Assembly: GCA_038249055.1 (NCBI GenBank)
Contig: JBBRWS010000002.1
Location: forward strand, 14,118-78,117
Reading direction: 5' to 3'
From: Minisyncoccia bacterium
GTDB lineage: Bacteria > Patescibacteriota > Minisyncoccia > Phycocordibacterales > UBA9973
Length of the DNA: 64,000 nt
Shown: positions 2,619 through 57,389 of the stretch, one piece after another
How positions within the stretch are numbered: the stretch's first letter is position 1
Layout of the letters: every line of letters starts with the position of its first letter
Translations under genes and position numbers: made by a program
The notes under the pieces: model-generated
What the model saw: the letters and a program-made list of their open reading frames with translations, nothing else
Databases searched by the model: none
Told to the model about the DNA's origin: nothing

Positions 2619-2804
2619 ATGGCAAAAAAATCAGTAACAGCAAGACATTTAAAGAAGTCAAAATTTAGTACACGAGAAACAAATCGTTGTTTTCGTTGTT
2701 CCCGTGGACATGCTTATATGAGAGATTTCGGTCTATGTCGTATTTGTTTCCGCGAACTAGCAAACGAAGGTATGCTTCCAGGAGTACGTAAGTCATCTTG
2801 GTAA
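2619..2804 (+). CDS. rpsN: 30S ribosomal protein S14, Z-type (zinc-binding)
   Basis: 61 aa with CxxC...CxxC ([24 protein letters not shown]). It sits upstream of S8. Confidence 0.9.
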
Positions 2805-2843
2805 TCGAAAGTAATAAGTAGAATAAGATTTAAACAAAAATAT

Positions 2844-3224
2844 ATGGACCAAATAGCAAACATGATGAATATGATAAAGAACGCAGGCCGTGCAAAGCAC
2901 GAGTTTGTTGTTGTTCCTCATTCAATAATTAAATTTTCTATAGCAGAATGCTTGGTAAGAGAAGGTTATCTTAAGAGCGTTACAAAGAAAACAAAGAAAG
3001 GCTTTCCAATAATAGAAGTAGGTTTAGTATACGCTGAAGATGGAACTCCAAAGATTATCGGAGCAGATCGTATTTCAAAATCATCATGCCGAGTATATAA
3101 AGGAGTTAAAGATATCAAAAGAGCTTATGGATTAACAATTCTTTCAACATCAAAAGGTATTTTAACTGAAAAAGAAGCACGAAAAGAAATGGTCGGAGGA
3201 GAAGTATTGTTTAAAATTTGGTAA
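2844..3224 (+). CDS. rpsH: 30S ribosomal protein S8
   Basis: The N-terminus DQIANMMNMIKNAGRAKHEFVVVP is typical of S8, and the operon position fits. Confidence 0.9.
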   Translation: MDQIANMMNMIKNAGRAKHEFVVVPHSIIKFSIAECLVREGYLKSVTKKTKKGFPIIEVGLVYAEDGTPKIIGADRISKSSCRVYKGVKDIKRAYGLTILSTSKGILTEKEARKEMVGGEVLFKIW

Positions 3225-3233
3225 TTAATATAT

Positions 3234-3770
3234 ATGAGTAGAATTGGAAAACAAACAGTTATAATCCCCGCAGGTACAGAAGCTAAACTTTCTGGAACTA
3301 CTTTTTCCGTGAAAGGTCCAAAGGGCTCACTTACACGTGACTTTCCAGGAGAAGTAACTTTACATATAAATGGTAATGAAATAACTTTTACTCCCAATAA
3401 GCAAAATGACCGTACAGTAAATTCACTATGGGGTACATATGCTTCACATGTTAAAAACATGGTTATTGGAGTAAACGAAGGTTACACAAAAAAGCTTATA
3501 CTAGAAGGAGTTGGTTTCAAGTCAGAAGTTGCAGGAAACATGCTCAATCTAGCCTTAGGTTTTTCACACCCAGTTAAAATAACTATTCCAGTAGGCCTAA
3601 CTGTTACTGCAGAAAAGAACAATGTTACAGTTACAGGTATTGATAAAGAACTAGTTGGTTCATTTACCGCATCTGTGAGAGCAAACAAGAAACCAGAACC
3701 TTATAAAGGAAAAGGATTCCGTTATTCAGATGAAGTTATCCGTCGTAAGCAAGGTAAGAAAGCAGCATAG
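3234..3770 (+). CDS. rplF: 50S ribosomal protein L6
   Basis: MSRIGKQTVIIPAGTEAKLSGTTFSVKGPKGSL matches the L6 N-terminus. Confidence 0.9.
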   Translation: MSRIGKQTVIIPAGTEAKLSGTTFSVKGPKGSLTRDFPGEVTLHINGNEITFTPNKQNDRTVNSLWGTYASHVKNMVIGVNEGYTKKLILEGVGFKSEVAGNMLNLALGFSHPVKITIPVGLTVTAEKNNVTVTGIDKELVGSFTASVRANKKPEPYKGKGFRYSDEVIRRKQGKKAA

Positions 3771-3817
3771 TAATTACTAATTAAAAATTACTGATTACTA
3801 ATTTTAAATACAAAAAT

Positions 3818-4162
3818 ATGATTAATAAAAAAATAGAAAAAAGAATAAGACTAAAGAAAAAAATCCGTACAAAGATCAACGGTACAGCAGAATGTCCACG
3901 TCTTTCTGTTTTTCGTTCAAACAATTTTATGTACGCTCAAATTATTGATGATATAAATCAAGTTACTTTAGCTTCAGCTTCAGACATTAAAGTTACAAAA
4001 GGAACTAAAACAGACCGTTCAGTTGCCGTAGGGGAAGAAGTTGCAAAGAAGGCCATTGCAAAAGGTATAAAGTCTTGCGTTTTTGATCGTAATGGTTTTA
4101 AATACACAGGAAGAGTTAAGGCGCTTGCAGATTCTGCACGTTCCGCAGGTCTAAAATTTTAA
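3818..4162 (+). CDS. rplR: 50S ribosomal protein L18
   Basis: The C-terminal [26 protein letters not shown] is an L18 signature. Confidence 0.9.
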
Positions 4163-4171
4163 TATAAAAAT

Positions 4172-4795
4172 ATGGATACAACAAAACCAAAACCAAATAC
4201 AGGTAATAATAGAAGTTTTAGTAAACCAGCTTATGGAGCTAAAAGAGAAGGTAGTGATACACGTCGTTCACGTCCATCTTTCGAACGTCCAAAGCCAGAG
4301 TTTGATCAAAAAATGGTTTCAATTCGTCGCGTTACTCGTGTGGTAGCCGGTGGACGTCGTATGACATTTGCTGTCGCAATTGCTATTGGAGATAAAAAGG
4401 GTTCAGTTGGACTAGGAACTGGAAAGGGAGTTGATACTGCTATTGCAATTACAAAAGCTCTTCGCCAGGCAAAAAAGAACATGTTCAAAATAAAGACAAC
4501 AAAAGAAATGTCTATTGCTCATGAAGTTTCAGCTAAGTTTGCAAGTTCTCAATTGTCTATCATGCCTAACCGAGGAAAAGGTTTAGTGTCAGGAAGTACT
4601 GTTCGTGATATGCTAATATTAGCAGGTATAAAAAATGTAACTGCAAAGCTTCACTCAGGTAGTAAAAATAAATTAAACAACGCACGTGTCGCTTATAAGA
4701 CACTTTACATGCTTAGAGAAAAGTCATCTGCAGTAAAGTCAGTTCCTTTCGTTGCTGAAGCAGTAAAAGAGGAAGCAAAGGAAGAAGTTAAATAA
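4172..4795 (+). CDS. rpsE: 30S ribosomal protein S5 (with basic N-terminal extension)
   Basis: VTRVVAGGRRMTFAVAIAIGDKKGSVGLGTGKG is the S5 core. Confidence 0.9.
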   Translation: MDTTKPKPNTGNNRSFSKPAYGAKREGSDTRRSRPSFERPKPEFDQKMVSIRRVTRVVAGGRRMTFAVAIAIGDKKGSVGLGTGKGVDTAIAITKALRQAKKNMFKIKTTKEMSIAHEVSAKFASSQLSIMPNRGKGLVSGSTVRDMLILAGIKNVTAKLHSGSKNKLNNARVAYKTLYMLREKSSAVKSVPFVAEAVKEEAKEEVK

Positions 4796-7278: not shown

Positions 7279-7965
7279 ATGCAAAAAAATGAGCCAATAA
7301 TTTTATCATTAGGGGGATCATTAATAATTCCTGATCAAATAGATATTAATTTTTTAAAAGATTTCAAAGAATTAATTTTGGCTCAAGTTAAAAATGGAAA
7401 GAAATTTATAATTGTTACTGGAGGAGGTAAAATTTGCAGGAATTATCAAAAAGTAGCAAAAGAAATTTCAAATCCATCAGACGAAGATTTAGACTGGATC
7501 GGAATTGCATCTTTGAAACTTAATGCTGAATTACTAAGAGTAATTTTTGGTGAATATTCACATGATAAAGTAATAGAAAATCTTTCTGATAATTTAAATT
7601 TTGAAAAACCAATTATTATTGGTTCTGCTTATAAACCAGGCCAGAGTACAGATTGGGGTGCTGTAATTGCAGCTGAAAATTTTGGTTCAAAAATGGTAAT
7701 TAATCTTTCCAATATTGATTATGTTTATGATTCAGACCCTAAACAAAATCCAAACGCTAAAAAAATAGAAAAAATTTCATGGGATGATTACAGAAACATA
7801 ATTCCTAAATATTGGAATCCAGGATTAAATTCTCCTTTTGATCCTATTGCTTCTAAAAAGGCAGAAGAGTTAGGGGTGGAAGTTCACTTTATTTTAGGTA
7901 GTGATTTGGAAAGTCTAAATAATTGCATAGAAAATTTACCTTTTACTGGAACAACAATTAATTAG
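7279..7965 (+). CDS. amino-acid-kinase family protein (UMP-kinase/isopentenyl-phosphate-kinase-like)
   Basis: N-terminal ILSLGGSLIIPD and VTGGG motifs of the carbamate/amino acid kinase fold. 228 aa. Confidence 0.5.
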   Translation: MQKNEPIILSLGGSLIIPDQIDINFLKDFKELILAQVKNGKKFIIVTGGGKICRNYQKVAKEISNPSDEDLDWIGIASLKLNAELLRVIFGEYSHDKVIENLSDNLNFEKPIIIGSAYKPGQSTDWGAVIAAENFGSKMVINLSNIDYVYDSDPKQNPNAKKIEKISWDDYRNIIPKYWNPGLNSPFDPIASKKAEELGVEVHFILGSDLESLNNCIENLPFTGTTIN

Positions 7966-8146: not shown

Positions 8147-8914
8147 ATGTCAGTAATAATAAAAACTCAAAAAGAAATAGATATTATTCGTGAAGGAGGT
8201 AAAATACTAGCCAAAGTTTTAGCACAAACAGCTAAACACGTTAAACCCGGTATTACCACAGGTGAGCTTGATAAGTATGCTCATGATTTAATTAAAAAAG
8301 AAGGTGGAACTCCAGCCTTTTTGAATTACAAACCAGAGGGGGCCTCACACGCTTTTCCAGCATCTATTTGTATATCCGTTAACAACGAGATAGTTCATGG
8401 TATTCCAACTAAAAACAGGATTTTAAAAGAGGGAGATATAGTTTCACTTGACCTTGGCGTGAAGTACAAGGGCCTTTTTACCGACCATGCTGTTACTGTT
8501 GCTGTAGGTAAGGTTTCAAAAAAAGATCAACAGTTAATGGCAGACACAAAAAAAGCTTTGGAAGTTGGTATCATGGCAGCACGAGGTGGAAATACTGTTG
8601 GTGATATTGGTCATGCAATTGAGTCATTTGTTAATAGGAGATATGGTATTGTGCGAGAGCTTGCAGGTCATGGAGTTGGAATAAAGATTCACGAAGATCC
8701 TTATATTCCCAATTATGGTAAAGCTGGAAAGGGACAGAAATTGATTCCTGGAATGGTTGTAGCTATTGAGCCTATGTTAAATCTCGGAAGAGATCACATT
8801 CTTAGTATGGATGATGGTTATACTATTAAAACTGCAGATGGTTCTCGAAGTGCTCACTTTGAACATACTATTCTCATCACAGAAGGTGATGCAGAAATTT
8901 TAACTATAGTATAA
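8147..8914 (+). CDS. map: methionine aminopeptidase type I
   Basis: MetAP-I fold motifs (HGIP, DxG, HGVG, EPM, EHT). I prefer the internal ATG at 8147 because the track ORF start overlaps the palindromes. Confidence 0.85.
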   Translation: MSVIIKTQKEIDIIREGGKILAKVLAQTAKHVKPGITTGELDKYAHDLIKKEGGTPAFLNYKPEGASHAFPASICISVNNEIVHGIPTKNRILKEGDIVSLDLGVKYKGLFTDHAVTVAVGKVSKKDQQLMADTKKALEVGIMAARGGNTVGDIGHAIESFVNRRYGIVRELAGHGVGIKIHEDPYIPNYGKAGKGQKLIPGMVVAIEPMLNLGRDHILSMDDGYTIKTADGSRSAHFEHTILITEGDAEILTIV

Positions 8915-8915
8915 A

Positions 8916-9012
8916 TTGTAGAGGTTGTACCTCTCAATCAGTAGATTGACCTACTCGGTACGGGAGCCCAGTAGGTGATTGTACTCAATCAAGGTCCAAC
9001 CTCTACAATTTT
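8916..9012. repeat. composite palindromic repeat element (TTGTAGAGGTTGTACCTCTCAATCAGTAGATTGACC...GGTCCAACCTCTACAA)
   Basis: Member of a family seen at 12819, 16700, 20611, 27270, 31826, 36202 and 41616. Confidence 0.7.
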
Positions 9013-9038
9013 AAAATAAGATATTAAATAGACGTTTC

Positions 9039-9110
9039 GCGGAATTGATAAAATTATTTCCTCTTTACCCCAGAGGGGCCCTACGAGATAAATAATTTTA
9101 TCAATTCCGC
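9039..9110. repeat. 21-nt perfect inverted repeat (GCGGAATTGATAAAATTATTT) flanking a CCCCAGAGGGG mini-palindrome
   Basis: Nested cruciform-capable structure 60 nt upstream of the 912-aa ATPase gene. Confidence 0.6.
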
Positions 9111-9172
9111 TTCACTAATAATTTATAGGTTTTTCCTGCTCCATTTTTATTTCTTATGGTATAATTATTCAC

Positions 9173-11911
9173 ATGATAGAAGGACTTAATTTAAATAATG
9201 CACCAAAATTTAAAACTCCTCAAGAAGAGTTAGATTTTTTACGTGCACACATAGCAGAACGTGAAAAGATTTTAGGTGACAAAGGTAAAGAAGTTAAAAA
9301 AGAAGAAATAGCTCATGATGCAATTTCTGAATATAGAAAATATAACCCTAGTGATGTTATGCACAAATCAGCTGTTATTAAAAAAAGTGAAATAGAAAAC
9401 TTGGTTTTAAGATTGCATCCAGAATCCCATGATAATAAAATGGAAGAATTACTCGGCATTTTGCTCGATAAAGGAATATCAAACACATTATCAATTATTG
9501 GTGCAATGAATAATCCGCACTTAGATGATGATTTCCATCGTTTCCTTGTTCAATATTTACATAATACACACAAGATTCCAGGGTTAAAGGAAAATACTCC
9601 GCTTTTTAAATCATTAAATATGGCACTTTTTGAAATTTCACTTCCAGATATGAATGACAATGAAGCAAATAAAAAAGGCTTAAAGGAATTACTTGGTGCT
9701 ATGGAACAGTTTTATGCTGGAATGCATTCAGTAGGAGAGGGACGGGAAAATTTTAATCGCAATCATTTTACTCTTGAAATAGCAGTAGCAGAAGGTAGTG
9801 ATAGTTTTATTTTTTATGCGGCAGTTCCATCTGAAAAATCCGATTTATTTGAAAAACAATTATTTGGAGTTCATCCTGAAGCAAAAATCCTAGAAGTTAC
9901 TGATGATTATAATATCTTTTCAGAAAATGCTTCAGTTTCTGGATCATATGCAACACTCGCCCGTCATAATATTTACCCCATAAAACTTCATGATGTTATT
10001 GATCATGATCCACTAAATATTATTTTAAATGTTTTTACCAAATTAAAGAAAAATGGTGAAGGTGCTGCAATTCAGTTTTCAATATGCCCACAAGATGATG
10101 AAATAATGAGGGAATTTCATGAAATTTTATCAAATGTGAAAAATGGTATGTCTGTTCGAACAGCTTCAAGCACTACTCGCCAAGTTGCAAAAGAATTTAA
10201 AAGCCTAGCCAGCGAATTATTTTTTGGAGCATCAAAAAAGAAAGAAGAAAAAAAAGTAAATGATAAAGCTGTAGAAAATATTACAGAAAAAATGAAAAGT
10301 ACAATAATGGCAACCAATATTCGTATTATTACTTCCGCAGAAAATCACCAAAGAGCAGAGCAAATTATTTCTGATATTGAGTCATCTTTTAATCAATTTA
10401 CAGAAGCAGATCGCAATGGATTTAACTTCAATCATCCTGAAGGTAAAAATTTAGCAAATTTAATTCATGAATTTTCATATAGAACTTTTTCAAATGAATA
10501 TTCTATGCCTCTCAATTTAAAAGAACTTGCCACAGTATTACATTTTCCATATGGTGTTGTTTCGTCTCAGCTTAAACAAGCAAAAGCAGGCTTTGCTCCA
10601 GCACCCCTTGAAATGGGGAATGAAGGAATTCTGCTTGGTATAAATAGTTATAGAGGTAAAGATACAGAGATTCGTATGTCTCGCGAAGACAGAATGCGCC
10701 ATATGTATGTTATTGGTCAAACAGGAACTGGTAAAACAACTATTTTGAAGAATATGATTGCTCAAGATATTAGAAATGGAGATGGGTGTTGTTTTATAGA
10801 TCCACACGGAAGTGATATTCAAGATATTTTGAGTTATGTACCTAAAGAACGAATTGATGATGTTGTATATTTTGATCCTGCATATACAGCGAGACCCATG
10901 GGGCTTAATATGCTTGAATTTGATCCTAGATATCCTGAACAGAAAACTCTTGTTGTAAACGAGCTTATGGGTATTTTTAATAAACTTTTTGACATGAAGG
11001 CGGGAGGAGGTGCAATGTTTGAACAGTATTTTAAAAATTCCGCCTTTCTTGTTATGGAACATCCAGAATCTGGGTGTACTTTGCTTGAAATTGGTAGAGT
11101 TCTTTCCGATAAATCATTTCGTGATATGAAACTTTCTCATTGTAAAAATCCTATCATCAAACAATTTTGGCAAGGAGCAGAAAAGACTACTGGAGATCAG
11201 GGTCTTGAAAACTTTGTTCCGTATATTACATCCAAATTTGATAACTTTATCTCTAACGATATTATGAGACCAGTTGTTCTCCAAGAGAAGTCGGTATTTA
11301 ATTTTAGAGAAATTATGGATAATAAAAAAATTCTACTTGTAAATCTTTCAAAAGGTAGACTTGGAGATATAAATGCAAACTTGATAGGTCTAGTTCTAGT
11401 AGGTAAGATACAAATGGCCGCACTTTCTCGTGTAGATATGTACGGACAAAAAATGAATGACTTCTATCTTTATATAGACGAATTCCAAAACGTGACAACT
11501 GATTCGATTTCATCAATTCTTTCAGAGGCTCGCAAATATCGTCTATCTTTAACAGTTGCCCATCAATATATATCACAACTTGAGGAAAATATTAAAAATG
11601 CAGTATTTGGAAACGTAGGTTCAATGGCTATATATCGTATAAGTACAGAGGATGCAAATTTTGTTGAACAACAATTTAAACCCACTTTTACCGCTTCTGA
11701 TATTGTAAAATTAGATAACTTTAATTCATATGTAAAAATGCTTGTGAATGGTACGCCAACAAAGCCATTTAGTATGAAATCGCACTGGAGTATGACAGAA
11801 AGAGGAGATATGGAAGTAGTAGAAAAAATAAAACAATTATCTTATCTCAAATTTGGCCGCCCACGAGAAGAAGTTGAAGATGAAATAATGGAAAAATATA
11901 AACGAGATTAA
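9173..11911 (+). CDS. P-loop ATPase of the VirD4/TraD/HerA (DUF87, T4CP-like) superfamily with an uncharacterised ~500-aa N-terminal half
   Basis: Walker A GQTGTGKTT followed by FIDPHG, Walker B LYIDEFQN, and RKYRLSLTVAHQYISQL (RK-Y..Q..QL motif of coupling/HerA ATPases). Confidence 0.55.
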   Translation: MIEGLNLNNAPKFKTPQEELDFLRAHIAEREKILGDKGKEVKKEEIAHDAISEYRKYNPSDVMHKSAVIKKSEIENLVLRLHPESHDNKMEELLGILLDKGISNTLSIIGAMNNPHLDDDFHRFLVQYLHNTHKIPGLKENTPLFKSLNMALFEISLPDMNDNEANKKGLKELLGAMEQFYAGMHSVGEGRENFNRNHFTLEIAVAEGSDSFIFYAAVPSEKSDLFEKQLFGVHPEAKILEVTDDYNIFSENASVSGSYATLARHNIYPIKLHDVIDHDPLNIILNVFTKLKKNGEGAAIQFSICPQDDEIMREFHEILSNVKNGMSVRTASSTTRQVAKEFKSLASELFFGASKKKEEKKVNDKAVENITEKMKSTIMATNIRIITSAENHQRAEQIISDIESSFNQFTEADRNGFNFNHPEGKNLANLIHEFSYRTFSNEYSMPLNLKELATVLHFPYGVVSSQLKQAKAGFAPAPLEMGNEGILLGINSYRGKDTEIRMSREDRMRHMYVIGQTGTGKTTILKNMIAQDIRNGDGCCFIDPHGSDIQDILSYVPKERIDDVVYFDPAYTARPMGLNMLEFDPRYPEQKTLVVNELMGIFNKLFDMKAGGGAMFEQYFKNSAFLVMEHPESGCTLLEIGRVLSDKSFRDMKLSHCKNPIIKQFWQGAEKTTGDQGLENFVPYITSKFDNFISNDIMRPVVLQEKSVFNFREIMDNKKILLVNLSKGRLGDINANLIGLVLVGKIQMAALSRVDMYGQKMNDFYLYIDEFQNVTTDSISSILSEARKYRLSLTVAHQYISQLEENIKNAVFGNVGSMAIYRISTEDANFVEQQFKPTFTASDIVKLDNFNSYVKMLVNGTPTKPFSMKSHWSMTERGDMEVVEKIKQLSYLKFGRPREEVEDEIMEKYKRD

Positions 11912-20610: not shown

Positions 20611-20668
20611 AAAAAAAATAGTAGAGGTTGGACGTCTTCCGTAGATGTACAACCTCTACTATTTTTTT
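20611..20668. terminator. repeat-family hairpin acting as a bidirectional terminator (A-run, TAGAGGTTGGACGTC..GTACAACCTCTA, T-run)
   Basis: Lies between convergent genes. Confidence 0.65.
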
Positions 20669-23993: not shown

Positions 23994-25406
23994 CTAGAAT
24001 TTATATTCCGGAATATCTTTTAGTTCCCCACGCAAAAAGGGAAATAAGAGACCATTGTCGTATGCCAACAAGAGTTTGTCGGCAAATTTTTCTAAGCCAT
24101 TGTTTCCTTCATTACTGGAAAGCATTGTGTTGCTATTTTTTCCTTTATACCAATAGGTATTATAGGAAAAATTTTTCAACAAGTGCTTATTGAGTTTCAG
24201 GTGATTGGCTGTATCGGCGATACAGTCCAATAACATAGGGAATACCCCAGTTCCAGACCACCTGCCGAGCACAAACATATGGGGCAGTCCTTTCAAGAAT
24301 CCGACCATAATTGGGTCGATGTTACGGAGCCAATTTTGGTCGCTCCATTCCTTTGAAGCTGCGTCATGATATGGGGTCATAATGACCACATAATCAAACA
24401 GCTCTTTTGCCTGTCTCATTATCCTCACCAAGTTGGGAGGCATAATGTCCTTACCACGAAACTGTGATAAAGGTCGGGTTCTCCTGTTGTATGTCTGGTA
24501 AAACCAGGCGTACTCAGTTGATCCGATAGAATCAGCAAAAAAATTCACTGCACTGTCCGGGGAAGGATCCTCGGCTCTGGTATTGTCCGCTATTTCTTCT
24601 TTGGCACTTACGTACCAAACTGGAAAAGCAAAACTCAACTCAGGTAAATGCCTGATGTCAATCACTGAACTGTGATTAAGCAGACCATTTTTGTGCATTA
24701 AGGTAAAAGCTTCTCTTACGCTTAAGAACTGCGAGTATTCCTTTTTCAATGAATCGCTCTGGCCAGAAAGGCCATTTTCATTGTACAAAGCAATTGTCTC
24801 ATCAATCATAGCCTGTTCTGCAACCTTATCAACATCGTCCATAATGGAGCATTTAACTCCTAACGGGCTTAACATTGAGAACGTTTTCTCCACGAAAGTT
24901 TCAGCCATCCGGTTTATATCTTCCGGATTGTAGCCACCACCCTGACTCAATACCCAACCAATCTGCTGAATAAATTCAGCAAGGGGTTTGTTTTCGAGAG
25001 CTTTAGAGATATCACCTTCAGCGATAATCTTTTTCAACTGGTGGTAAGGGCTAATTGCCCTGGAGAGTCCAGCTATTGCTGTGGTACGCCCTTCTGGTGT
25101 ATTCACATCAAGACCGGTTTCAATCATTACAATTTTTTCTGTTCTGAACTTCCCAACTCTCTGAGGGTCGTGGTTTAATTCTGAAAATTGGACCAACTGT
25201 CCAACTTTGAATTCGGAACTTTCGGAAACTGGGCAAAAAATGTCCCCATTGGTTCCGATGCTTTCATAAGCACGTTTAACCATTCCGATAAATACATATC
25301 CAGTATGTACTGAGACAATCTCACCAGTGTACACGGTTCCAACTATTACTTCTGGATTTTCAATAACTAGAATTTCTTCTTGGTCATTCTTTAAATCATT
25401 TGTCAT
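23994..25406 (-). CDS. hypothetical 470-aa protein, GC content visibly higher than neighbours
   Basis: Long ORF with distinct composition. No recognisable catalytic motif. Confidence 0.5.
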   Translation of the reverse strand: MTNDLKNDQEEILVIENPEVIVGTVYTGEIVSVHTGYVFIGMVKRAYESIGTNGDIFCPVSESSEFKVGQLVQFSELNHDPQRVGKFRTEKIVMIETGLDVNTPEGRTTAIAGLSRAISPYHQLKKIIAEGDISKALENKPLAEFIQQIGWVLSQGGGYNPEDINRMAETFVEKTFSMLSPLGVKCSIMDDVDKVAEQAMIDETIALYNENGLSGQSDSLKKEYSQFLSVREAFTLMHKNGLLNHSSVIDIRHLPELSFAFPVWYVSAKEEIADNTRAEDPSPDSAVNFFADSIGSTEYAWFYQTYNRRTRPLSQFRGKDIMPPNLVRIMRQAKELFDYVVIMTPYHDAASKEWSDQNWLRNIDPIMVGFLKGLPHMFVLGRWSGTGVFPMLLDCIADTANHLKLNKHLLKNFSYNTYWYKGKNSNTMLSSNEGNNGLEKFADKLLLAYDNGLLFPFLRGELKDIPEYKF

Positions 25407-31464: not shown

Positions 31465-31538
31465 CCGCCCTTAGCTCAGTTGGTTAGAGCACAGAGCTTA
31501 TACCTCTGGGGTCCTAGGTTCGAATCCTAGAGGGCGGA
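31465..31538 (+). tRNA. tRNA-Ile (anticodon UAU)
   Basis: Folded manually. Acceptor CCGCCCU/AGGGCGG, D-arm GCUC..GAGC, anticodon stem CAGAG/CUCUG with loop CUUAUAC, T-arm CUAGG-UUCGAAU-CCUAG, discriminator A. Terminator CAGGGGTTACCCTG + T7 at 31544-31572. Confidence 0.8.
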
Positions 31539-31574
31539 CAATTAAAAAAATCAGGGGTTACCCTGGTTTTTTTA

Positions 31575-32501: not shown

Positions 32502-35500
32502 ATGGATAATCCTCCTAAAAAAACTATAGATAACGAAAAGGACGAAAAGACCGATATGGTTGATACTGCTGATAAAACCGAGACATCAGTTAATACTGAA
32601 AAGACTGAAGACCAAATAAGAGAAGATATAAAAAAGAGTGCTTTAGAAAAAGCAAAAAAAACAGTTACAGTTGTAAATGTTGAAGAATTAGCCGAAAATG
32701 AAGCTCGTAAGGCTGCAGATGCAAACATGGCCGAGTCACATGGAAGCAAAAAAATTGGTTTTTTTAAAAAAATGTGGAAGCATACATTTTTTGATGAATA
32801 TTACAGACAAAAAGAAGTAAATAAAGTTCGTGAGGATATAAAAAATACAGGTAACATTTATACAGGAAGATTAGAAAATAAAGATAAAGTAGCTCACGAG
32901 ACTACAATGAAGGCGATTTCTGATCGCTTTACTTCCGAATATGAAGGGACACTTGCTGACGGAGAAGCTAAAAAAATGCTAGATGAAAAGGACCCAGAGA
33001 CTATACAAGCAAAAACTGACATAAAAAATTTACTTGATAGCTATGCTATGGGTAAAATAGATGATGAAGCTTTTAATACTGAAAAAAATAAAATTATAGG
33101 AGGTTTAAAGAAAGAAGATTTACTAGAAGGAGCAAATAATTATGCAGACAATCTTTTTGAGATTGCTCAAAATGCACGTCTAGCGGTAGAACACGGAGCA
33201 AAGATTGAAGAGTTAGAATACGACTTAGCGATTGTTGTAGGTAAAGCAAAAAGCAGTCTAAAAACAGAGGCTCATTTCAACTGGGTAGATCAAGGTATTG
33301 ATAAAATGAAAAAATCATACGTTGGTAGATTTATAAGCCCAGCCGTTCTATCTCTTGGTGTTGGTCTTGCTTATTCTATATCAGTTGGAGCAAGTAAAAA
33401 ATTAATGGCAAGTAAAGCAGCTGCATGGATATCACTAGGAGGTTCAGTTGCGATTTCTGCAGCATTTGCTGGAATGAACGAGAGTCAGCGTGTTGCACTT
33501 GAGAGAAAACAACATGGTATTGAAATGGCTGAAGGAGGTATTATTGAAGAAGGAGATAAACGTAGAGAGCAATTGGAAAAATATCAATATACAATGGAAA
33601 GTTCAAATGTTCTTGCTCAAAATTTGCGTGATTTAATGTTTGAAAAAGATAAAGATGGTAATGAAATAGTTAAAGATATTAAACCAGAAGATTTACAGAA
33701 AATCATGGCAAGTCTAAGTGAAATAGATGCACGTAAATCTCTTAACACAAGAAAGAAGATAGATCTTATTTCATATACAAATATTAGTAGTGTAGAAAAA
33801 GAAAGTACAGATCTTACTATTTTGACAGCCAGAGCTAAAGTGGAATTAAAGAAAAGACTTGATGGTGGTCTAAAAAGTGGATTACCAGAGGGTAAAGATT
33901 TTGATTCTTATTTGAAAGAACAAACTCAAACCATAGAAGATACTCTTCTTGGTGGTGAAAAAGGAATAAATTCTCATGATAAAGCTTTCAGAAGATACAA
34001 GGCAGGTCGTATTGCTAAAAAAATGGCACAAACTGCAGTCGCAGGTTTGATCATTGGAGGAACGATTCAAGAAGTATTTGCTTTCTTTAAAGATGATGTA
34101 CAGGGTCTTGCAGAAAGTATGTTCCATCAAGATGCTCATGCAACTATGCAGACACCCTTTGAAAGTATTAGAGGTTGGATTTTAGGCAATCCTTCTCATA
34201 TGGAAATGGGGAATGCGGTCCACGCTGTTTTCAATGGACATGATATAAATATTCCAGAAGGTACAAGTCTGGTTAATAATGCTGACGGAACTTTTGATTT
34301 ATTAAGAGGTGGTCATGTTGTAACAAGTCATTTTCTTCCAACATTTAATGCTGATGGTGGCTTAGATGCGGCTTCTGTTGCAAAATTAGGGCAAGATGGA
34401 ATTATTGCAACGGCTACTCATCAAATAATTGATTCTACAAAAGAAGTAACTGGTAATTCTCAAGAATGGTTATTGAATCATCCAGGAGAAACTATTAAAG
34501 TTGATCACAATGCATTTATGGATCAAAATACATCTATGACTCCCGACCAATTTCATCCTGGTCATTTAGTAGGAGCTGATGGTAATGAACCTCTTACTCA
34601 GTGGGGAGGTATAAATGGAACAGGTGTAAATGAAAATGGAGACACTGTAATGAATATTTCTCAAATGATAAAAGAGGGTTCATATCACGGAAATATTTCC
34701 GTGGATGTTCCAAAAGAATTAAATGATGGTAATTTGATGGCATTAATATTTCTTAATTCCACTCATGGTGCTGGTATACCAGTACCAATAGATGCAAGTG
34801 GAAATATTATTTTTGATCATAACAATCCGATAATGCAGCAAATATTTAGTCCTGGTCCTGATGGCCATATGGTGTCACATGCTAGAGTTATTGAAATTGT
34901 TCAAAAAATGGGGACAGATGCAAATGGAGTTGAGCATGTCCGTGCTCTTAGTGCTGTGGTTGGTGAAGGTCTAGATAAAATAAAAGATATTGTCCCTTCG
35001 CATCTTGATATTGCAATAAATAATTTAACTCCAACTCGAGGTACAGAAATGCCATTATTTGTCCCATTGGTTGCTCGCAGACCACTTGGAAAAATAATTT
35101 ATGGTCCAGATGGTAAACCAATTAAGCCAAGTCCTGAAGGTGACAAAGAGAAAAAATCTACTATTCAAACTGAAGGAGATAAAGATTTAAATACAATTCC
35201 AGGAGCTCCGATTGGAGGTGAAGAAAATAAAGATTTAAATACTGTAGCGGCTATTCCAGTAGGAGTAGGAGAGACAATTGAAAAACAAAAAACAATGAAT
35301 GAAATGAGCAAGGAGGAATACGACGCAATGTATGATGATTTAAAGATGATTAATTTGAGAATTCAATCAGCACAAGGAATTATTACCTTAGAAGAATCAG
35401 ATTTAAAATCCGCATACGGTAAAAAGAGATATATGGATTTAAAATCTATTGCTCCGGGTGTTCCTGTTCGTTTCAATAAAGATGAGCTAGAAATTATGGG

Positions 35501-36182
35501 TAAAGAAATTGAAGGTCTTTTAAGTAGTGCAAAAATAGTTGAAAAAGAAAAAGAGCTGACCGTAGAAGAAAAAGGAGGTATTAAATCAGACATAGAAATG
35601 TTAAATAAAGCGATTCAAAATTCACAAGGAATTATTGCTTTAAATGAGTCTTCATTTCAATCTGAATATGGAAAGAAAAGATATAGAGAACTTAAATCTA
35701 TTGCAGAAGGTAAGGGTATAACATTTAATAAAAATGAATTACCCCAAATAGCTACTGAAATGGAAGCCGTACTTCGAGGTCCCAGAAAAATAGAACAAAC
35801 AGAAGTTGTAAAAGCTCCAGAAGAAACTATTGTTGAAAAAGTAGTAGAACAAGCACCTTCAGAAAAAGTTGAAGAAAAAGTAGTAGAACAAACCGAAGTT
35901 AAAAAAGCTCCAGAGCAAGCACCTGCAGAAGAAGTTGCAAAAAATCTAGAAACAGAAAAATTATATAAGATTGAAGATTTATCAAAAATAGGAACAGTTT
36001 TTGAAGATAAAAACAATAGTTTTAAAGTTCTAGGGGTTACTAGTTTTTTAGGGATGAATAAAAAAATAAAAATTGAATACACTAATAAAATAACAGGAGA
36101 AAAGAAAACAGACTTCTATCCTAAGAAAGATTTAATAAAAGACTTTAATAATGGAGTTGTTAAGATAAAATCAGTAGAATAA
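32502..36182 (+). CDS. giant (1226 aa) hypothetical protein with central transmembrane segments, Glu/Lys-rich N-terminus, C-terminal ~60-aa tandem repeats and an EKVVEQ low-complexity tract
   Basis: Hydrophobic stretches (ISPAVLSLGVGLAYSISVGA, AAWISLGGSVAISAAFAG, AVAGLIIGGTIQEVFAFF). Repeats MINLRIQSAQGIITLEESDLKSAYGKKRYMDLKSIA / MLNKAIQNSQGIIALNESSFQSEYGKKRYRELKSIA. Confidence 0.6.
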   Translation: MDNPPKKTIDNEKDEKTDMVDTADKTETSVNTEKTEDQIREDIKKSALEKAKKTVTVVNVEELAENEARKAADANMAESHGSKKIGFFKKMWKHTFFDEYYRQKEVNKVREDIKNTGNIYTGRLENKDKVAHETTMKAISDRFTSEYEGTLADGEAKKMLDEKDPETIQAKTDIKNLLDSYAMGKIDDEAFNTEKNKIIGGLKKEDLLEGANNYADNLFEIAQNARLAVEHGAKIEELEYDLAIVVGKAKSSLKTEAHFNWVDQGIDKMKKSYVGRFISPAVLSLGVGLAYSISVGASKKLMASKAAAWISLGGSVAISAAFAGMNESQRVALERKQHGIEMAEGGIIEEGDKRREQLEKYQYTMESSNVLAQNLRDLMFEKDKDGNEIVKDIKPEDLQKIMASLSEIDARKSLNTRKKIDLISYTNISSVEKESTDLTILTARAKVELKKRLDGGLKSGLPEGKDFDSYLKEQTQTIEDTLLGGEKGINSHDKAFRRYKAGRIAKKMAQTAVAGLIIGGTIQEVFAFFKDDVQGLAESMFHQDAHATMQTPFESIRGWILGNPSHMEMGNAVHAVFNGHDINIPEGTSLVNNADGTFDLLRGGHVVTSHFLPTFNADGGLDAASVAKLGQDGIIATATHQIIDSTKEVTGNSQEWLLNHPGETIKVDHNAFMDQNTSMTPDQFHPGHLVGADGNEPLTQWGGINGTGVNENGDTVMNISQMIKEGSYHGNISVDVPKELNDGNLMALIFLNSTHGAGIPVPIDASGNIIFDHNNPIMQQIFSPGPDGHMVSHARVIEIVQKMGTDANGVEHVRALSAVVGEGLDKIKDIVPSHLDIAINNLTPTRGTEMPLFVPLVARRPLGKIIYGPDGKPIKPSPEGDKEKKSTIQTEGDKDLNTIPGAPIGGEENKDLNTVAAIPVGVGETIEKQKTMNEMSKEEYDAMYDDLKMINLRIQSAQGIITLEESDLKSAYGKKRYMDLKSIAPGVPVRFNKDELEIMGKEIEGLLSSAKIVEKEKELTVEEKGGIKSDIEMLNKAIQNSQGIIALNESSFQSEYGKKRYRELKSIAEGKGITFNKNELPQIATEMEAVLRGPRKIEQTEVVKAPEETIVEKVVEQAPSEKVEEKVVEQTEVKKAPEQAPAEEVAKNLETEKLYKIEDLSKIGTVFEDKNNSFKVLGVTSFLGMNKKIKIEYTNKITGEKKTDFYPKKDLIKDFNNGVVKIKSVE

Positions 36183-36512: not shown

Positions 36513-38045
36513 ATGAAGGAACAGTTCAACGAAAAAGATTCTCTGCAAAAAGATATAGAAAGTCAGACAACAGCAGAAGGTATAAAAAGTTTTATAGATG
36601 ATACCGAGGCATGGGGTGGTCATGAAGATATAGTTCTGTTTGCTAAAAAAAAGCTCGAAGATATTTCATTGAAGGCTAATGCAGCAGAACAAACAAGTGA
36701 ATCTCATATTGTTCAAATAAATGAGATGGAGGGAAGTGTGGTAGCAGTAGCAGAAAGAACAAAAAATATTGATAAACAAATAGAAGAGGTTAAAGCAAAT
36801 GCAGCAGCAGAAATTGGAAAAGTTGAGGCTATTGGAGCTGAGATAGGAGAGAAAAGCCCAGAAATAATAATAGATAAAAGATTACAAGAATATACCGAAG
36901 GTAATATTATAAAATTTGCAGAAGAAGGAAGACCTTACAAAGTAACAAAAACAGCAGAAGATAAAGGTTCTTATTATTTAGCGGAAATAGAAGCTATTTT
37001 AGAACCAGGAGAAGATTCTAAACACAAAGATCATAATTTTGTTGAATTAGAGAAAACAGAAAATGGATCAATTGGGAAAATACTTGCAAGACCTGATTAC
37101 TTATATAAACCTAGAGAAACACAAAAAGTAGAAGGAGAAAAAAATGCAGGAGAAGTAATAGAAAATAATATAAATAATAATGTTGCAGAACCAGAGAAGG
37201 TAGCAGAAGTTCAAAATGAAACAACTGCTGAGTCTGTTGTAGCTCCAGAGACTAAAGTTGAAAGCCCTGTTGTTTCAAAACCAGAAGCTGGACCAGAAAA
37301 AGTAATTAGTAAAGGGGAAGAAAGGTATAATAAAATTTCAGATACAATAACTACTCAAAAGAATAAATTTACAGGTTGGATAAGTAGAGGAACTGAAGGT
37401 CTTGGAAAATTTATTAAAAAGGGATTAATAGGAGCTTTGGAAGCACCAGAAGATATAACTCATGGTGTAAAAGTTGTTGGAAATAAAATAGTAGAAGAAT
37501 CAGGCTATATAAAAGATAGCATTGTAGCAGGAGCTACCATTGTTGGTAAAACAACAGTTGAAGGATTTAAATCTATGGGAAATGATTATAATAAATTTGA
37601 TAAATATAGAGGTGAAAAAGTTGAACAAATAGGAGAATGGGTAGGATTCAGTGCAGCTCAGGCTTATGAGTCAAGTTCAAATTGGATAAAAGAAAAGAAA
37701 ACAAAAACAGAAAATATTATTAATGGAGTTTCTCTTGCTACAGAAACAGTTTATGAATTAGCAAAAGATAAATCGATTGAAAAATTGGAGAATACAAGAG
37801 ATAGCATTAAAAAATCTTTAAAAGAACTTAAAAAACATGGTGAAAGCGCATTGGATACAGCTCGATTATGGGCTTGGTATAAAAAAGATGACTACAATAA
37901 AAAGAAGAATGCTATAAAAGAAGCATATCTTAAAAAGAAAGGAGAAATAGAATATAGTAAAATGCAGAAAATATTAGAAAAAAATGCTCAATTAAATCAA
38001 ATTGGGAAGAAAGGAGAAAAACTAGAATATAAAATAGCCGCATAA
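36513..38045 (+). CDS. hypothetical 510-aa Lys/Glu-rich, predicted coiled-coil protein
   Basis: Long ORF, no motif. Confidence 0.5.
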   Translation: MKEQFNEKDSLQKDIESQTTAEGIKSFIDDTEAWGGHEDIVLFAKKKLEDISLKANAAEQTSESHIVQINEMEGSVVAVAERTKNIDKQIEEVKANAAAEIGKVEAIGAEIGEKSPEIIIDKRLQEYTEGNIIKFAEEGRPYKVTKTAEDKGSYYLAEIEAILEPGEDSKHKDHNFVELEKTENGSIGKILARPDYLYKPRETQKVEGEKNAGEVIENNINNNVAEPEKVAEVQNETTAESVVAPETKVESPVVSKPEAGPEKVISKGEERYNKISDTITTQKNKFTGWISRGTEGLGKFIKKGLIGALEAPEDITHGVKVVGNKIVEESGYIKDSIVAGATIVGKTTVEGFKSMGNDYNKFDKYRGEKVEQIGEWVGFSAAQAYESSSNWIKEKKTKTENIINGVSLATETVYELAKDKSIEKLENTRDSIKKSLKELKKHGESALDTARLWAWYKKDDYNKKKNAIKEAYLKKKGEIEYSKMQKILEKNAQLNQIGKKGEKLEYKIAA

Positions 38046-40693: not shown

Positions 40694-40790
40694 TACCGCC
40701 TATAGCTATAAATATAATTAGTAAAATTATAGTTCTTGTTTTACTTAATTCTTTTTTCATGTAAATATTATATCAGAATATTTTATATTG

Positions 40791-40879
40791 CGGAGACGGC
40801 GAGATTCGAACTCGCGAGGGGGTTTGAAGCCCCTGCCTCTTTAGCAAAGAGGTACGTTAGACCACTCTGACACGTCTCC
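40791..40879 (-). tRNA. tRNA-Ser (anticodon GCU), type II
   Basis: Minus strand GGAGACG..anticodon stem CCUCU/AGAGG with loop UUGCUAA, a long variable arm, T-arm GCGAG-UUCGAAU-CUCGC, discriminator G. Confidence 0.8.
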
Positions 40880-41110: not shown

Positions 41111-41196
41111 GGAGGCGTGGATGAGTGGCTTAAATCAACGGTTTACTAAACCGTCGTCCCCTTAAAGGACCGTGAGTTCGAATCTCACCGCCTCCG
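41111..41196 (+). tRNA. type-II tRNA, Ser-like (G73, long variable arm) with atypical anticodon loop UUACUAA (formal anticodon ACU)
   Basis: Acceptor GGAGGCG/CGCCUCC, 3-bp D-stem, anticodon stem ACGGU/ACCGU, variable hairpin GUCC-CCUUAAA-GGAC, T-arm GUGAG-UUCGAAU-CUCAC. Confidence 0.65.
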
Positions 41197-41229
41197 CATG
41201 TTGAAAAAATTGCCCTTTTATGGGGCATT

Positions 41230-46891: not shown

Positions 46892-48088
46892 CTATTCACT
46901 AATTTTCGTCTCCGGATAAACTATATCCCATAAAGCACTCGCTACATTATGTGGTTTACCTACGAGGGGGAAGTGATGAAGATCTATAAATGGAGCACTG
47001 TTACATTCGATAACCCCACATCTTGGTTGGTCCTTCCATGAAATAGATACATCATCCATTATAAAATCTACTCCTATAAGAGGGTCATCAAGTACTTCTG
47101 CTACTTTTTCAAGCATTTCTTTATTGTCAGGATGTACAATATCAGTCATATCAGTAATTCCACCTCCTACAGCTCTACTTGTTTTTTGTCCGAGAGTTAT
47201 TAGCTCATCTTTTTTTGGAATGGTATTTTCATTATGATTCCAGTTTTTTAATTCTTTTATTGCTTCATCATCTAGTTTTAGTTGGTGAAATATTGGTCCT
47301 TGTCTGAGAGGATTTTTATTTTCAATTTCTATGAGTTCTTTTATGTTATGAATTCCATCTCCTATTACATATGCTGGTTCACGGCGAAGGCAAGCGATAA
47401 GTTTTCCTCCAATTAGAGTTCCTCTAAAAACGTAACCAGAAAGTTCTTCTTCTATCATTACCCAAGGGGAAAGTTGACGAGCTATTTTAAAGGCAGTTAA
47501 AAATTCATCCGCACTATTTAAATGAGTTCTAGTATGGCGACTTCGTGAACCAAGATTTGGTTTTGTAATTACAGGTTTATCTAAAGAATTAAAAATCTTT
47601 AAAGCGTTCTTTGTAGAATGAGTCACTCCACCACGCGCTACTTTTATTCCAGCTTTTTCAAAGTGTTTTTTCATCTCACCTTTATTATCCATCCATTCCA
47701 ATCCTTTTGGATTATATATTTTTGGACGAGGTAAAACATCAAAAAATCTTTTATCTTTATTAAATTCTGATACGAAAATATCATGACCAATATTAAAAAG
47801 TCTAAATTCGTACATATTTATTCCTCTTTTTATAGCTTCTTCCCAAAGGACCTGTGCTCTACCACTATCATCTTTTTGAGGTTCGTATGTTATTTTGCCG
47901 AGTTTTAAAAAAGTTAAAGTTTTTGTTAATCCAGTACCCATCCAATCAAATGATGATTCGGGAATTAATTTACCCATCCAATTTGTCCAAGGTTCAATCA
48001 AAACACCCATTAAAATTGAGGTATAAACAATACCATGATTTACCTGACTCCCTCCACAATCAACACAATATTTTTTTGTTTTTTTCAT
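46892..48088 (-). CDS. ATP-grasp domain protein (RimK/cyanophycin-synthetase-like ligase) with N-terminal Cys cluster
   Basis: ATP-grasp pattern (KPNLGSRSRH...MIEEELSGYVFRGTLIGGKLIA...GVDFIMD) and an N-terminal YCVDCGGS. Confidence 0.55.
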   Translation of the reverse strand: MKKTKKYCVDCGGSQVNHGIVYTSILMGVLIEPWTNWMGKLIPESSFDWMGTGLTKTLTFLKLGKITYEPQKDDSGRAQVLWEEAIKRGINMYEFRLFNIGHDIFVSEFNKDKRFFDVLPRPKIYNPKGLEWMDNKGEMKKHFEKAGIKVARGGVTHSTKNALKIFNSLDKPVITKPNLGSRSRHTRTHLNSADEFLTAFKIARQLSPWVMIEEELSGYVFRGTLIGGKLIACLRREPAYVIGDGIHNIKELIEIENKNPLRQGPIFHQLKLDDEAIKELKNWNHNENTIPKKDELITLGQKTSRAVGGGITDMTDIVHPDNKEMLEKVAEVLDDPLIGVDFIMDDVSISWKDQPRCGVIECNSAPFIDLHHFPLVGKPHNVASALWDIVYPETKISE

Positions 48089-48218: not shown

Positions 48219-48890
48219 CTAGTGTGCAATTGTAAATCCAAAAACTCTCTTAGCTCCAGCTTTTTTAAGAATTCTCATCATTTCTTTTATGGTTCCACCT
48301 GTCGTTACCACATCATCTATCACAATAATGGTTCTACCTTTTAATATTTCTTTATTTTTTATTTCAAAAACATTTTTTACGTTTTCAAGCCTCATTTTTT
48401 TATTTGTTATTTTTGCCTGAGGAATAGTATCTACTTTTTTTACAATAATTTCATTTTTTAATTCAAAGACTGCTTTTCCTCCGGAATTACAAAACCCTTT
48501 TGCAATCATTAGAGCTTGATTATATCCGCGCAGTTTAGTTTTATTCCTTGAAATTGGAATAGGAATGATATATAAGGTTCTACCAGAAATATCCATTTTT
48601 ATATCCGAAATATCCTCCAATAGATATTCATACAATAATTTACCGAGTTTTTCTCCCAAATAGCGTTTATTGTGATATTTTAATTCCCATATAACTTTTT
48701 TTATTATTGGGTCTTTGTAAGAAAAAATAGTTTTTATATTTTCATCTAATTCTTTATCATTTAGACTTATTTTTGCAATACAATTATCACATAAAATTTC
48801 GTTTTTTATCTGACATCCGGTACACTTAATAGGGAACATTATATCTAATAAAAAATTCTTGATTTTATTGGTATAAAAATAGATTTTCAT
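48219..48890 (-). CDS. comF: ComF-family phosphoribosyltransferase-domain protein
   Basis: N-terminal CxxC..CxxC zinc finger (FPIKCTGCQI..CDNC) and the C-terminal PRTase motif IIVIDDVVTTGGT. Confidence 0.75.
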   Translation of the reverse strand: MKIYFYTNKIKNFLLDIMFPIKCTGCQIKNEILCDNCIAKISLNDKELDENIKTIFSYKDPIIKKVIWELKYHNKRYLGEKLGKLLYEYLLEDISDIKMDISGRTLYIIPIPISRNKTKLRGYNQALMIAKGFCNSGGKAVFELKNEIIVKKVDTIPQAKITNKKMRLENVKNVFEIKNKEILKGRTIIVIDDVVTTGGTIKEMMRILKKAGAKRVFGFTIAH

Positions 48891-48935
48891 TTTCTTATTT
48901 TACAGTAGATATGTTATAATAGATACTGATTAATC

Positions 48936-50072: not shown

Positions 50073-50082
50073 ATATATAATT

Positions 50083-50739: not shown

Positions 50740-50742
50740 TTT

Positions 50743-51339: not shown

Positions 51340-51340
51340 T

Positions 51341-52006: not shown

Positions 52007-52010
52007 ACCT

Positions 52011-53750: not shown

Positions 53751-53800
53751 TTATAAATTAGCTGTAGTAAAACATTTACAATTGTATTATATCGATTACG

Positions 53801-53960
53801 ATAGAACAACGGCTCTCGGACGTCATGCAAACAAATTTATATTTATTTGCATACGCTCCTCGTTTGTTGTTATGTAGGGTACTATAGAACAACGGCATTC
53901 GGACATGATGCAAATAAATTGATATTTATTTGCAAATGCTCCTCACTTGTTGTTATAATA
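53801..53960. repeat. tandem ~83-bp direct repeat (2 units) containing internal palindromes, ending in an extended -10 box TGTTATAAT
   Basis: ATAGAACAACGGC..TCGGAC..ATGCAAA..AAAT..ATATTTATTTGCA..GCTCCTC..TTGTTGTTAT repeated twice. A related box lies at 58500-58612 upstream of pilD. Confidence 0.7.
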
Positions 53961-53966
53961 AAAGAT

Positions 53967-54362: not shown

Positions 54363-54446
54363 TACCTGTCCCGTTAGAAGCCGCGATTGTAATTTATATA
54401 ATAAAAATAACATGAAATCAAACATTGAAAATATTAACAGTTTAAC

Positions 54447-55550: not shown

Positions 55551-55553
55551 TAT

Positions 55554-57335: not shown

Positions 57336-57389
57336 TATAAATTATCTCATGTCTCTCGAAAAGACAAATTATAAGAATTAAATATTATT

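Follow-up and report, generated by a model that had tools for sequence, protein, structure and literature searches.

Which task falls to a large P-loop ATPase with a motor of the coupling-protein kind whose gene stands just behind a ribosomal protein operon in a bacterium of the candidate phyla radiation (CPR)? This question is raised by an open reading frame (ORF) at 9173..11911 (+) in a stretch of 64,000 nucleotides from a Minisyncoccia bacterium (GenBank assembly GCA_038249055.1, contig JBBRWS010000002.1, positions 14,118 to 78,117), which is called the window in the following and represents a chromosome segment of CPR type with a GC content of 32.5%. The ORF starts with ATG, is complete and encodes 912 amino acids (aa). 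From the letters alone, the original prediction had described its product as a coupling-protein/HerA-type ATPase with the P-loop motifs GQTGTGKTT, FIDPHG and DEFQN, preceded by an N-terminal half matching nothing recognisable. ORF and motifs are borne out with exact coordinates, and the ATPase assignment of the C-terminal half is supported by sequence profiles as well as by fold. The N-terminal half can now be assigned: residues ~146-480 are annotated as the domain DUF8128, which is modelled with a fold like that of the VirB4 N-terminal domain, and residues 1-145 correspond to a small partner protein that has been fused to the ATPase. Tentatively, and at somewhat less than an even chance, we read this protein as a soluble motor of the type IV coupling protein (T4CP) type which couples or energises a distantly encoded CPR type IV secretion-like machine, moving a conserved substrate. 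The parts of the protein are the following.

9173..9607 (+), residues 1-145: helical N-terminal extension (partner module), from a hidden Markov model (HMM)
9608..10612 (+), residues 146-480: DUF8128 (PF26449), tandem alpha/beta domain, from precomputed Pfam annotation and model
10613..11782 (+), residues ~481-870: RecA-like ATPase core of the FtsK/HerA superfamily, T4CP type, from profiles and fold
10715..10738 (+), residues 515-522: Walker A, GQTGTGKT, from motif reading
10925..11272 (+), residues 585-700: all-alpha insert in the position of the TrwB all-alpha domain, from the model
11477..11491 (+), residues 769-773: Walker B region, DEFQN, from motif reading
11531..11581 (+), residues 787-803: RKYRLSLTVAHQYISQL, candidate arginine-finger/sensor stretch, by analogy with T4CPs

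With the T4CPs (VirD4, TrwB of R388, TraD, DotL) the protein shares the RecA-like motor, the Walker A, a Walker B of the DE-F form and an R...Q..QL stretch. Further motifs are FIDPHG at residue 541 and RKYRLS...AHQY at 787-799. G515, Q516, T517, G518, G520 and K521 of the Walker A as well as D769, E770, F771, Q772 and N773 of the Walker B region are conserved in at least 97% of 75 sequences, and R787, K788, Y789, A796, H797, Q798 and Q802 of the candidate arginine-finger/sensor stretch are conserved as well. Three Pfam families score above their gathering cutoffs (given in brackets), namely TrwB_AAD_bind (PF10412) with 28.7 bits (20.5), DUF87 with 28.9 (23.2) and TraG-D_C (PF12696) with 24.3 (22), each match being short and lying around the P-loop and the Walker B/sensor region only. 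The best NCBIfam models are those of TraD/VirD4-type coupling proteins, at scores far under the equivalog cutoffs (score/cutoff in bits: SXT_TraD 50.9/366, TOL TraD 46.2/647, CD1115 family 27.4/250). In searches of the PDB, TrwB was found by the single sequence and by family profiles and DotL by profiles too, both being the top profile matches, while HerA was matched more weakly and only around the P-loop. FtsK_SpoIIIE stays below its Pfam cutoff (16.4 vs 24 bits), HerA_C reaches an E-value of 0.32, and no match to the VirB4 sequence families (CagE_TrbE_VirB, AAA_10) was obtained in Pfam, NCBIfam or PDB profile searches.

The full-length AlphaFold2 model (pLDDT 83.7, from a 27-sequence alignment) places six helices at residues 590-693 within the RecA-like core. 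Using Foldseek, TrwB is matched with a template modelling (TM) score of 0.61-0.66, normalised to TrwB, over ~410-460 columns; HerA (E 2.5e-11) and Cag-beta also match the full-length model, and the best E-value, 1.6e-14, belongs to full-length TrwK/VirB4 over ~900 columns. Judging from the alignment span rather than from a residue-level superposition of the insert itself, residues 585-700 appear to occupy the position of the TrwB all-alpha domain, which is another likeness to T4CPs. No transmembrane segment is predicted in the 912-aa protein, the top Kyte-Doolittle 19-residue mean (1.54) lying in the ATPase core. Hence, the ATPase differs from most, though not all, T4CPs in having no transmembrane anchor, and additionally in its ~480 extra N-terminal residues made up of partner module and DUF8128. 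HerA (PDB 4D2I) and FtsK/SpoIIIE have the superfamily motor in common with it. Unlike HerA, it displays no HAS-barrel N-domain match and no NurA or other nuclease partner; unlike FtsK/SpoIIIE, it has neither a transmembrane nor a gamma domain, and its genomes carry separate FtsK-like proteins.

For the N-terminal half, PF26449 is present in the precomputed annotation of an identical protein (P0001) and of all 120 top homologues, while a full-text literature search for 'DUF8128' returned no paper. An AlphaFold2 model of residues 1-480 (pLDDT 86.4, pTM 0.81) yielded 14 PDB matches at E<1e-3, and all of them are TrwK/VirB4 chains matched in their N-terminal domain (E 1.7e-6 to 9e-4, TM 0.31-0.38, 390-427 columns), followed by unrelated tandem ferredoxin-like enzymes at E > 2e-3. 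The query-normalised TM score probably understates the match of the core, since ~145 residues of the query belong to the partner module and the alignments are shorter than the 480-residue query. As modelled, then, DUF8128 has a VirB4-N-terminal-domain-like fold. The two-domain layout, an N-domain of ~350 residues followed by a C-terminal motor, is likewise that of VirB4/TrwK (R388; PDB 7O42, 8RTD). In contrast to these proteins, the ATPase has no VirB4 profile match, its structural TM score to them is only 0.3-0.4 on a predicted model, and no membrane-spanning VirB3 adjoins it or is fused to it.

The first 145 residues carry the motif KGI.N.L....NNPH..DDFHRFLV. Searching residues 1-480 against 1.84 billion cluster representatives gave 1,037 clusters, and some of the shorter proteins found align only from query residue ~144. 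Roizman-, Portnoy-, Pace- and Sungbacteria as well as Minisyncoccales are among the CPR groups in which short-form DUF8128 ATPases (~800-840 aa) abound. In all five short-form loci inspected, a helical protein of 128-167 aa is encoded directly upstream (one gene removed in locus L092), and an HMM of residues 1-148 matches these small upstream ORFs in L085, L086/L087, L090, L091 and L092 with E-values of 4e-13 to 8e-7. Their common motif is KG[LIV]..A[LIV]....N.P[HY]..D..H..L. The 912-aa form thus arose by gene fusion, which joined the DUF8128 ATPase to its dedicated small partner. The small partner has 18 detectable relatives, matches no Pfam family and contains no transmembrane helix (top Kyte-Doolittle means 0.07-0.75). 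Short forms resemble the window protein in combining DUF8128 with the motor and in their chromosomal housekeeping-type neighbourhoods; they differ in having the partner as a separate gene and in their other neighbours (PMT, GtrA, DnaX, EF-P or MacB), the small partner being the only universal one. In the N-terminal part they are 26-32% identical to the window protein, and they are either orthologues or paralogues of the long form. In L090 (6967-7605) and L091 (6931-7581), the small partner gene is immediately preceded by another gene, whose product of 212-216 aa has a single transmembrane helix at its N-terminus and which may be a third member of the operon.

Homologues of the window protein number in the thousands, the top 120 being full-length proteins of ~910 aa with 78-85% identity from metagenome-assembled genomes of Paceibacterota/Nomurabacteria. 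In a pattern scan in which each GTDB species was represented by one genome, at least 373 relatives came up, of which the best 80 were analysed; these are 44-85% identical and come from Nomura-, Yonath-, Taylor-, Zambryski-, Campbell- and Kaiserbacteria and other Parcubacteria. Among the loci with enough flank, map lies upstream on the same strand in 36 of 59, ndk downstream on the same strand in 31 of 57, and both in 22 of 41, so that the usual position is secY-adk-map, ATPase gene, ndk-beta-CASP. Across 74 full-length orthologues, mean identity amounts to 71% for the ATPase domain (range 58-92%), 69% for the helical insert (53-90%), 46% for DUF8128 (30-80%) and 43% for the N-terminal extension (24-79%). 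The high conservation of the insert sets the ATPase apart from T4CPs, where this part varies. A relaxase, integrase or type IV secretion system (T4SS) gene was found within 8-10 kb in none of the more than 85 loci, which is a further difference from T4CPs. A scan of 2.9 million viral contigs gave only 5 partial matches, all to the motor domain, which speaks against a phage origin.

In the window itself, the order is rplO-secY-adk-(amino-acid-kinase-fold gene)-map on the 5' side, map being directly upstream, and ndk, a beta-CASP metallo-beta-lactamase gene, a pilin-like gene and rplT/rpmI/infC on the 3' side. This agrees with the earlier statements that map precedes and ndk follows the gene and that the usual map-infA-rpmJ continuation is interrupted, as no Pfam match to an infA, rpmJ, rpoA block was obtained among the ORFs scanned downstream to ~27 kb. 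The GC content of the gene equals that of the surrounding window, which contains no second copy, and no integrase, relaxase, nuclease partner or direct repeats were found flanking it there. Given conservation, synteny, native GC, the lack of a paralogue and of mobile genes nearby and the few viral matches, the gene belongs to the chromosome of Paceibacteria, where it is inherited vertically and kept under strong constraint, and a recent origin from a mobile element or defence island is ruled out. The suggested remnant of a conjugative or defence element is thus contradicted by vertical conservation, synteny, GC and the lack of mobile genes within 8-10 kb. The other outcome that had been named, a universal CPR housekeeping protein of known role, holds as regards a near lineage-wide, housekeeping-type gene, and fails as regards a known role.

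Some observations on the neighbourhood may be added. Of the 82 loci L001-L082, whose ORFs were grouped into families, 18 have the amino-acid-kinase-fold gene (PF00696; window 7279-7965), which separates adk from map in spc operons of the Nomurabacteria type. A cysteine-rich family of 560-590 aa with many CxxC pairs occurs in 1-3 copies between this gene and map at the end of the spc operon in the Nomurabacteria relatives L003, L007, L009, L013, L015 and L020; the window does not have it. Outside the map-ndk context, the ATPase gene is often followed by a poorly conserved protein of 570-1,200 aa, charged or of low complexity (L060, L061, L065, L072, L074, L081; L092 10457-12166). Several of these proteins appear from their sequences to hold hydrophobic stretches, and they may be membrane partners. 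An apparent 1,164-aa fusion of map and ATPase in L063 (2484-5978) was rejected as an assembly artefact, a run of N having been translated as X. A ComFC-like phosphoribosyltransferase gene (-) followed by a type IV pilus locus (PilM, a weak PilO-like protein, PilB, PilT, PilC and prepilin peptidase) occupies window 48219-59426. Being ~37 kb away and not among the conserved neighbours of the ATPase, this locus provides no evidence for the functional link to pilus and comF genes that had been considered.

Upstream of the ATPase gene, three elements precede the start codon.

8913..9011 (+): composite hairpin, beginning at the final base of the map ORF and followed by TTTT
9039..9110 (+): perfect hairpin in the map-ATPase spacer, with a 21-bp stem and a 30-nt loop
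9157..9165 (+): extended -10 element TGGTATAAT, read from the sequence, 7 nt before ATG

The composite hairpin consists of an outer stem of 15-20 bp around three small hairpins, with outer arms of 20 nt (8913-8932 / 8992-9011, 95% complementary) and an inner pair at 8940-8958 / 8967-8985; the perfect 21-nt inverted repeat has its arms at 9039-9059 / 9090-9110. A repeat search thereby recovers both palindromes of the original prediction, while the gene is not bracketed by them, no inverted repeat being present downstream. Folding of 8905-9175 as RNA gives -86.3 kcal/mol (z = -8.9 vs shuffles). The stem arms TAGAGGTTGnAC of the 8913-9011 hairpin recur between convergent genes at 20616-20664, where they take the classic form of a bidirectional intrinsic terminator (A-run/stem/T-run). 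Owing to this recurrence and to the TTTT behind its stem, the 8913-9011 hairpin looks like the terminator of the spc-operon transcript. The orthologue in L006, and in part that in L008, is preceded by a hairpin homologous to 9039-9110; in L006, bases have changed on both arms with most of the stem still paired and the loop nearly identical. This 30-nt loop is conserved and reads CCTCTTTACCCCAGAGGGG...CTACGAG. No Rfam family matches the palindromes, either at gathering scores over the whole window or at permissive E-values over 8850-9200, and ARAGORN finds no tRNA at them. In at least 12 orthologous loci, among them L001, L005, L006, L011-L015, L018, L020 and L021, the predicted start (from mechanical ORF calling) is preceded at 6-8 nt by a TGnTATAAT-type box. 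The automatic promoter and terminator scan missed the -10 box and the long-loop hairpins by its own rules, hence these were read from the sequence. The box 7 nt before the ATG and its similar spacing in orthologous loci predict that the ATPase gene has its own promoter and a leaderless or near-leaderless mRNA.

Distant homologues that combine DUF8128 with the motor at ~20-26% identity are found outside the CPR in 279 plasmid records, with Streptomyces, Bacillus, Clostridium, haloarchaea and Sulfolobus as hosts, and in 50 records of Bacillus-group phages. PHROG 5156 matches residues 147-908 with an E-value of 2e-84; gp156 of phage G and a 913-aa protein of phage JL have the whole architecture (TM 0.59/0.59 for JL), and a 754-aa protein of TP-84 is another phage relative. 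These Firmicute, actinobacterial, archaeal and phage ATPases, none of which appears to have been characterised, are homologous to the window protein end to end over DUF8128 and motor, and the one plasmid homologue checked likewise has no transmembrane helix. They differ in their low identity, their patchy distribution, the missing 145-aa partner module and their location on mobile elements, some near relaxase-type, TcpD/E or VirB2 genes. On the Bacillus subtilis plasmid NZ_OX419581, the gene of a 913-aa homologue free of transmembrane helices stands immediately upstream of a replication-relaxation gene, with TcpD, TcpE and a VirB4-like ATPase within a few kb. Aligned by hhalign, the CPR family matches this homologue with a probability of 99.9% (E 2e-34, 645 columns) and the VirB4-like ATPase of the same plasmid with 1.1%. 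In Clostridium botulinum pRSJ10_1, the 3' end of a TrbC/VirB2 gene reaches into the gene of an 800-aa homologue. In the Streptomyces and Haladaptatus plasmids, annotation is missing or anonymous, so that there is no context to read. The relatives outside the CPR with a readable context are therefore, by their gene neighbourhoods, conjugation-associated and at least once take the usual position of a T4CP. Identity of the Bacillus plasmid homologue with the T4CP of pLS20 was considered and rejected, the latter being canonical with two transmembrane helices.

Within the CPR, T4CP homologues have already been surveyed. Quinonero-Coronel et al. 2025 (PMC12102498) reported 5,713 of them in 2,918 of 3,035 Patescibacteria genomes (96%), 148 being near virB4. 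Their Table S3 lists for GCA_000991405.1 exactly one t4cp1 hit (gene 596) and two FtsK-like t4cp2 hits, with VirB3/VirB4/VirB2 at genes 683-688, ~90 genes from t4cp1. Since this genome carries L006, the 82%-identical orthologue of the window protein, and has only that one t4cp1 hit, the family in the window is the VirD4-type T4CP of Nomurabacteria in the survey, and the CONJScan class adds to its likeness to T4CPs. In related genomes, CONJScan assigns virb4 to other genes, and a genuine VirB4 exists there separately, accompanied by TrsD and VirB3 (PMC12102498 Table S3). For some Nomurabacteria, two t4cp1 hits are listed in the same table. L020 encodes, 4 kb upstream of its long form, a motor-domain-only paralogue of 496 aa (2798-4288) with no transmembrane helices and 34% identity to residues 502-870, which may be such a second hit. 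Hence, the family is already known in the literature as an orphan T4CP homologue of unassigned function, while no published description was found of the VirB4-like N-domain, the lack of a membrane anchor, the partner fusion and the conserved position behind the spc operon.

How might such a protein work? It would be a cytoplasmic ring-type NTPase of the FtsK/HerA superfamily with a motor of the T4CP (VirD4/TrwB/TraD) kind, DUF8128 sitting where the N-terminal membrane anchor would be and the small helical partner having been absorbed by fusion in this lineage. Transcription would begin at an extended -10 promoter belonging to this gene, placed directly behind the terminator of the ribosomal spc operon, and give a leaderless mRNA. 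The protein would hexamerise and dock through DUF8128 and the partner module, instead of transmembrane helices, to the inner-membrane platform (VirB3/VirB4/VirB6/VirB8-like) of a T4SS-like machine encoded elsewhere, where ATP hydrolysis would feed a conserved substrate, DNA or protein, into or out of the channel. In favour of this reading count the T4CP-type motor, the VirB4-like N-domain, the homology to the Bacillus plasmid gene in T4CP position, the fused or separate small partner, conservation and synteny, and the presence of a VirB3/VirB4/VirB2 cluster in the genome that carries L006. A T4CP with no transmembrane helices which needs a small partner has a precedent in TraJ/TraI of pIP501 (PMC12857230).

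Several points weigh against this reading as a T4SS motor. No T4SS gene adjoins the ATPase in any of the more than 85 loci, and the similarity to the VirB4 N-domain is modest in TM score, comparing a predicted model with a single solved family. In conjugative T4CPs, the all-alpha insert is substrate-specific and variable; its 53-90% conservation here would rather be expected for an unchanging housekeeping substrate than for the cargo of a mobile element. Furthermore, VirB4 was found in 2,417 genomes of the survey vs T4CP homologues in 2,918 of 3,035, relaxases are almost absent from CPR, and the t4cp homologue of Southlakia epibionticum, which may or may not belong to the DUF8128 family, is non-essential, whereas other T4SS genes of this organism are essential (PMC12102498). 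Given the non-essential Southlakia homologue, the survey authors stated that exaptation of t4cp 'cannot be ruled out' (PMC12102498).

Precisely such an exaptation, in which a T4CP-derived motor was recruited for a housekeeping nucleic-acid task independent of secretion, is the other explanation to be taken seriously, even if we consider it rather unlikely. Candidate tasks are DNA uptake or processing for nucleotide salvage (with type IV pili/ComEC or in analogy to the archaeal Ced system), chromosome segregation or resolution, and DNA repair. It would account for a gene always apart from T4SS genes, for T4CP homologues more widespread than VirB4 (PMC12102498), for the housekeeping-like identity of the motor domain (58-92%) together with the unusually conserved helical insert, and for distant homologues in early or replication-proximal regions of Bacillus and Geobacillus phages, which have no T4SS. 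The neighbours in the window, adk, the amino-acid-kinase-fold gene, ndk and the beta-CASP nuclease gene, also point in this direction, but adk and map are ordinary spc-operon genes and the ndk/beta-CASP neighbourhood is not kept in short-form lineages; because of its lineage-specific nature, guilt by association with ndk and beta-CASP was given little weight. Moreover, the same genomes already possess FtsK-like t4cp2 proteins for segregation, ComEC is non-essential in the one CPR bacterium tested, and the closest non-CPR homologues with an interpretable context adjoin conjugation genes. A bolder form of the coupling hypothesis, which strikes us as doubtful, takes the DUF8128 ATPase and its small partner for the universally conserved motor still missing on the cytoplasmic side of the essential type IV machine of CPR bacteria, either a Ced-like importer of host nucleic acid or an effector exporter, free of a relaxase, and for a surviving VirB4/VirD4 intermediate with a VirB4-type N-domain and a T4CP-type motor.

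Alternatively, the protein could be a second assembly ATPase of VirB4 type, for instance powering the extraction or assembly of a VirB2-like pilin, and no substrate receptor. The whole architecture and the N-domain fold do match VirB4/TrwK best, the pRSJ10_1 homologue overlaps a TrbC/VirB2 gene, and a small protein fused or directly upstream echoes the virB3-virB4 arrangement. That small partner, though, has no transmembrane helix, unlike VirB3, and no VirB4 sequence family was matched. With an hhalign probability of 1% against the plasmid VirB4-like ATPase, a bona fide VirB4 with its own TrsD and VirB3 in these genomes and the CONJScan class t4cp1 instead of virb4, this explanation appears quite improbable. 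Finally, descent from an integrated element of conjugative, phage or defence type, either as a leftover or as cargo (a HerA-type defence ATPase, for example), is very improbable. The 279 plasmid and 50 Bacillus phage records, the PHROG 5156 match and weak partial PADLOC matches (mad8, E 3e-14 at residues 507-810; HerA around the P-loop only) speak in its favour, as do the palindromes. The latter lie upstream only, though, and resemble a terminator and a conserved hairpin, and there is neither a full-length PADLOC match nor a defence partner gene. The chromosomal position kept across many species-level genomes, strong constraint, native GC and a mere 5 partial matches in 2.9 million viral contigs stand against it as well, and integrase, relaxase, nuclease partner and direct repeats are all absent from the flanks.

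Elsewhere in the window, four ORFs have no Pfam family at E<=1e-3, located at 32502-36182 (+; 1226 aa), 36513-38045 (+; 510 aa), 23994-25406 (-; 470 aa) and 46892-48088 (-; 398 aa). tRNAs were noted at 41111-41197 (+), 40790-40879 (-) and 31465-31539 (+). The window holds a type-II tRNA whose 7-nt anticodon loop TTACTAA gives the anticodon ACT (Ser), an unusual A34 serine tRNA adjoining a normal tRNA-Ser(GCT), and also a tRNA-Ile with the anticodon TAT.

CPR bacteria (Patescibacteria) depend on host cells, and a T4SS-like machine is essential in the one member tested genetically. The substrate of this machine and its energising or coupling ATPase are the very question which the ATPase family described here targets. 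Its value as a target lies in being the only VirD4-type homologue in a closely related genome, with housekeeping-level conservation and no membrane anchor, while the VirB4-like N-domain and the dedicated small partner offer a protein-protein interaction ready to be examined. The mixed VirB4-like/T4CP-like architecture also bears on the evolutionary relation of the two T4SS ATPases, and, if the protein is indeed an intermediate, on how coupling proteins arose from VirB4. Should the ATPase be a partner of the T4SS-like machine, it would provide a handle on what CPR bacteria move into or out of their hosts; if not, it would still be a protein resembling a DNA motor that a very large radiation of bacteria has widely conserved.

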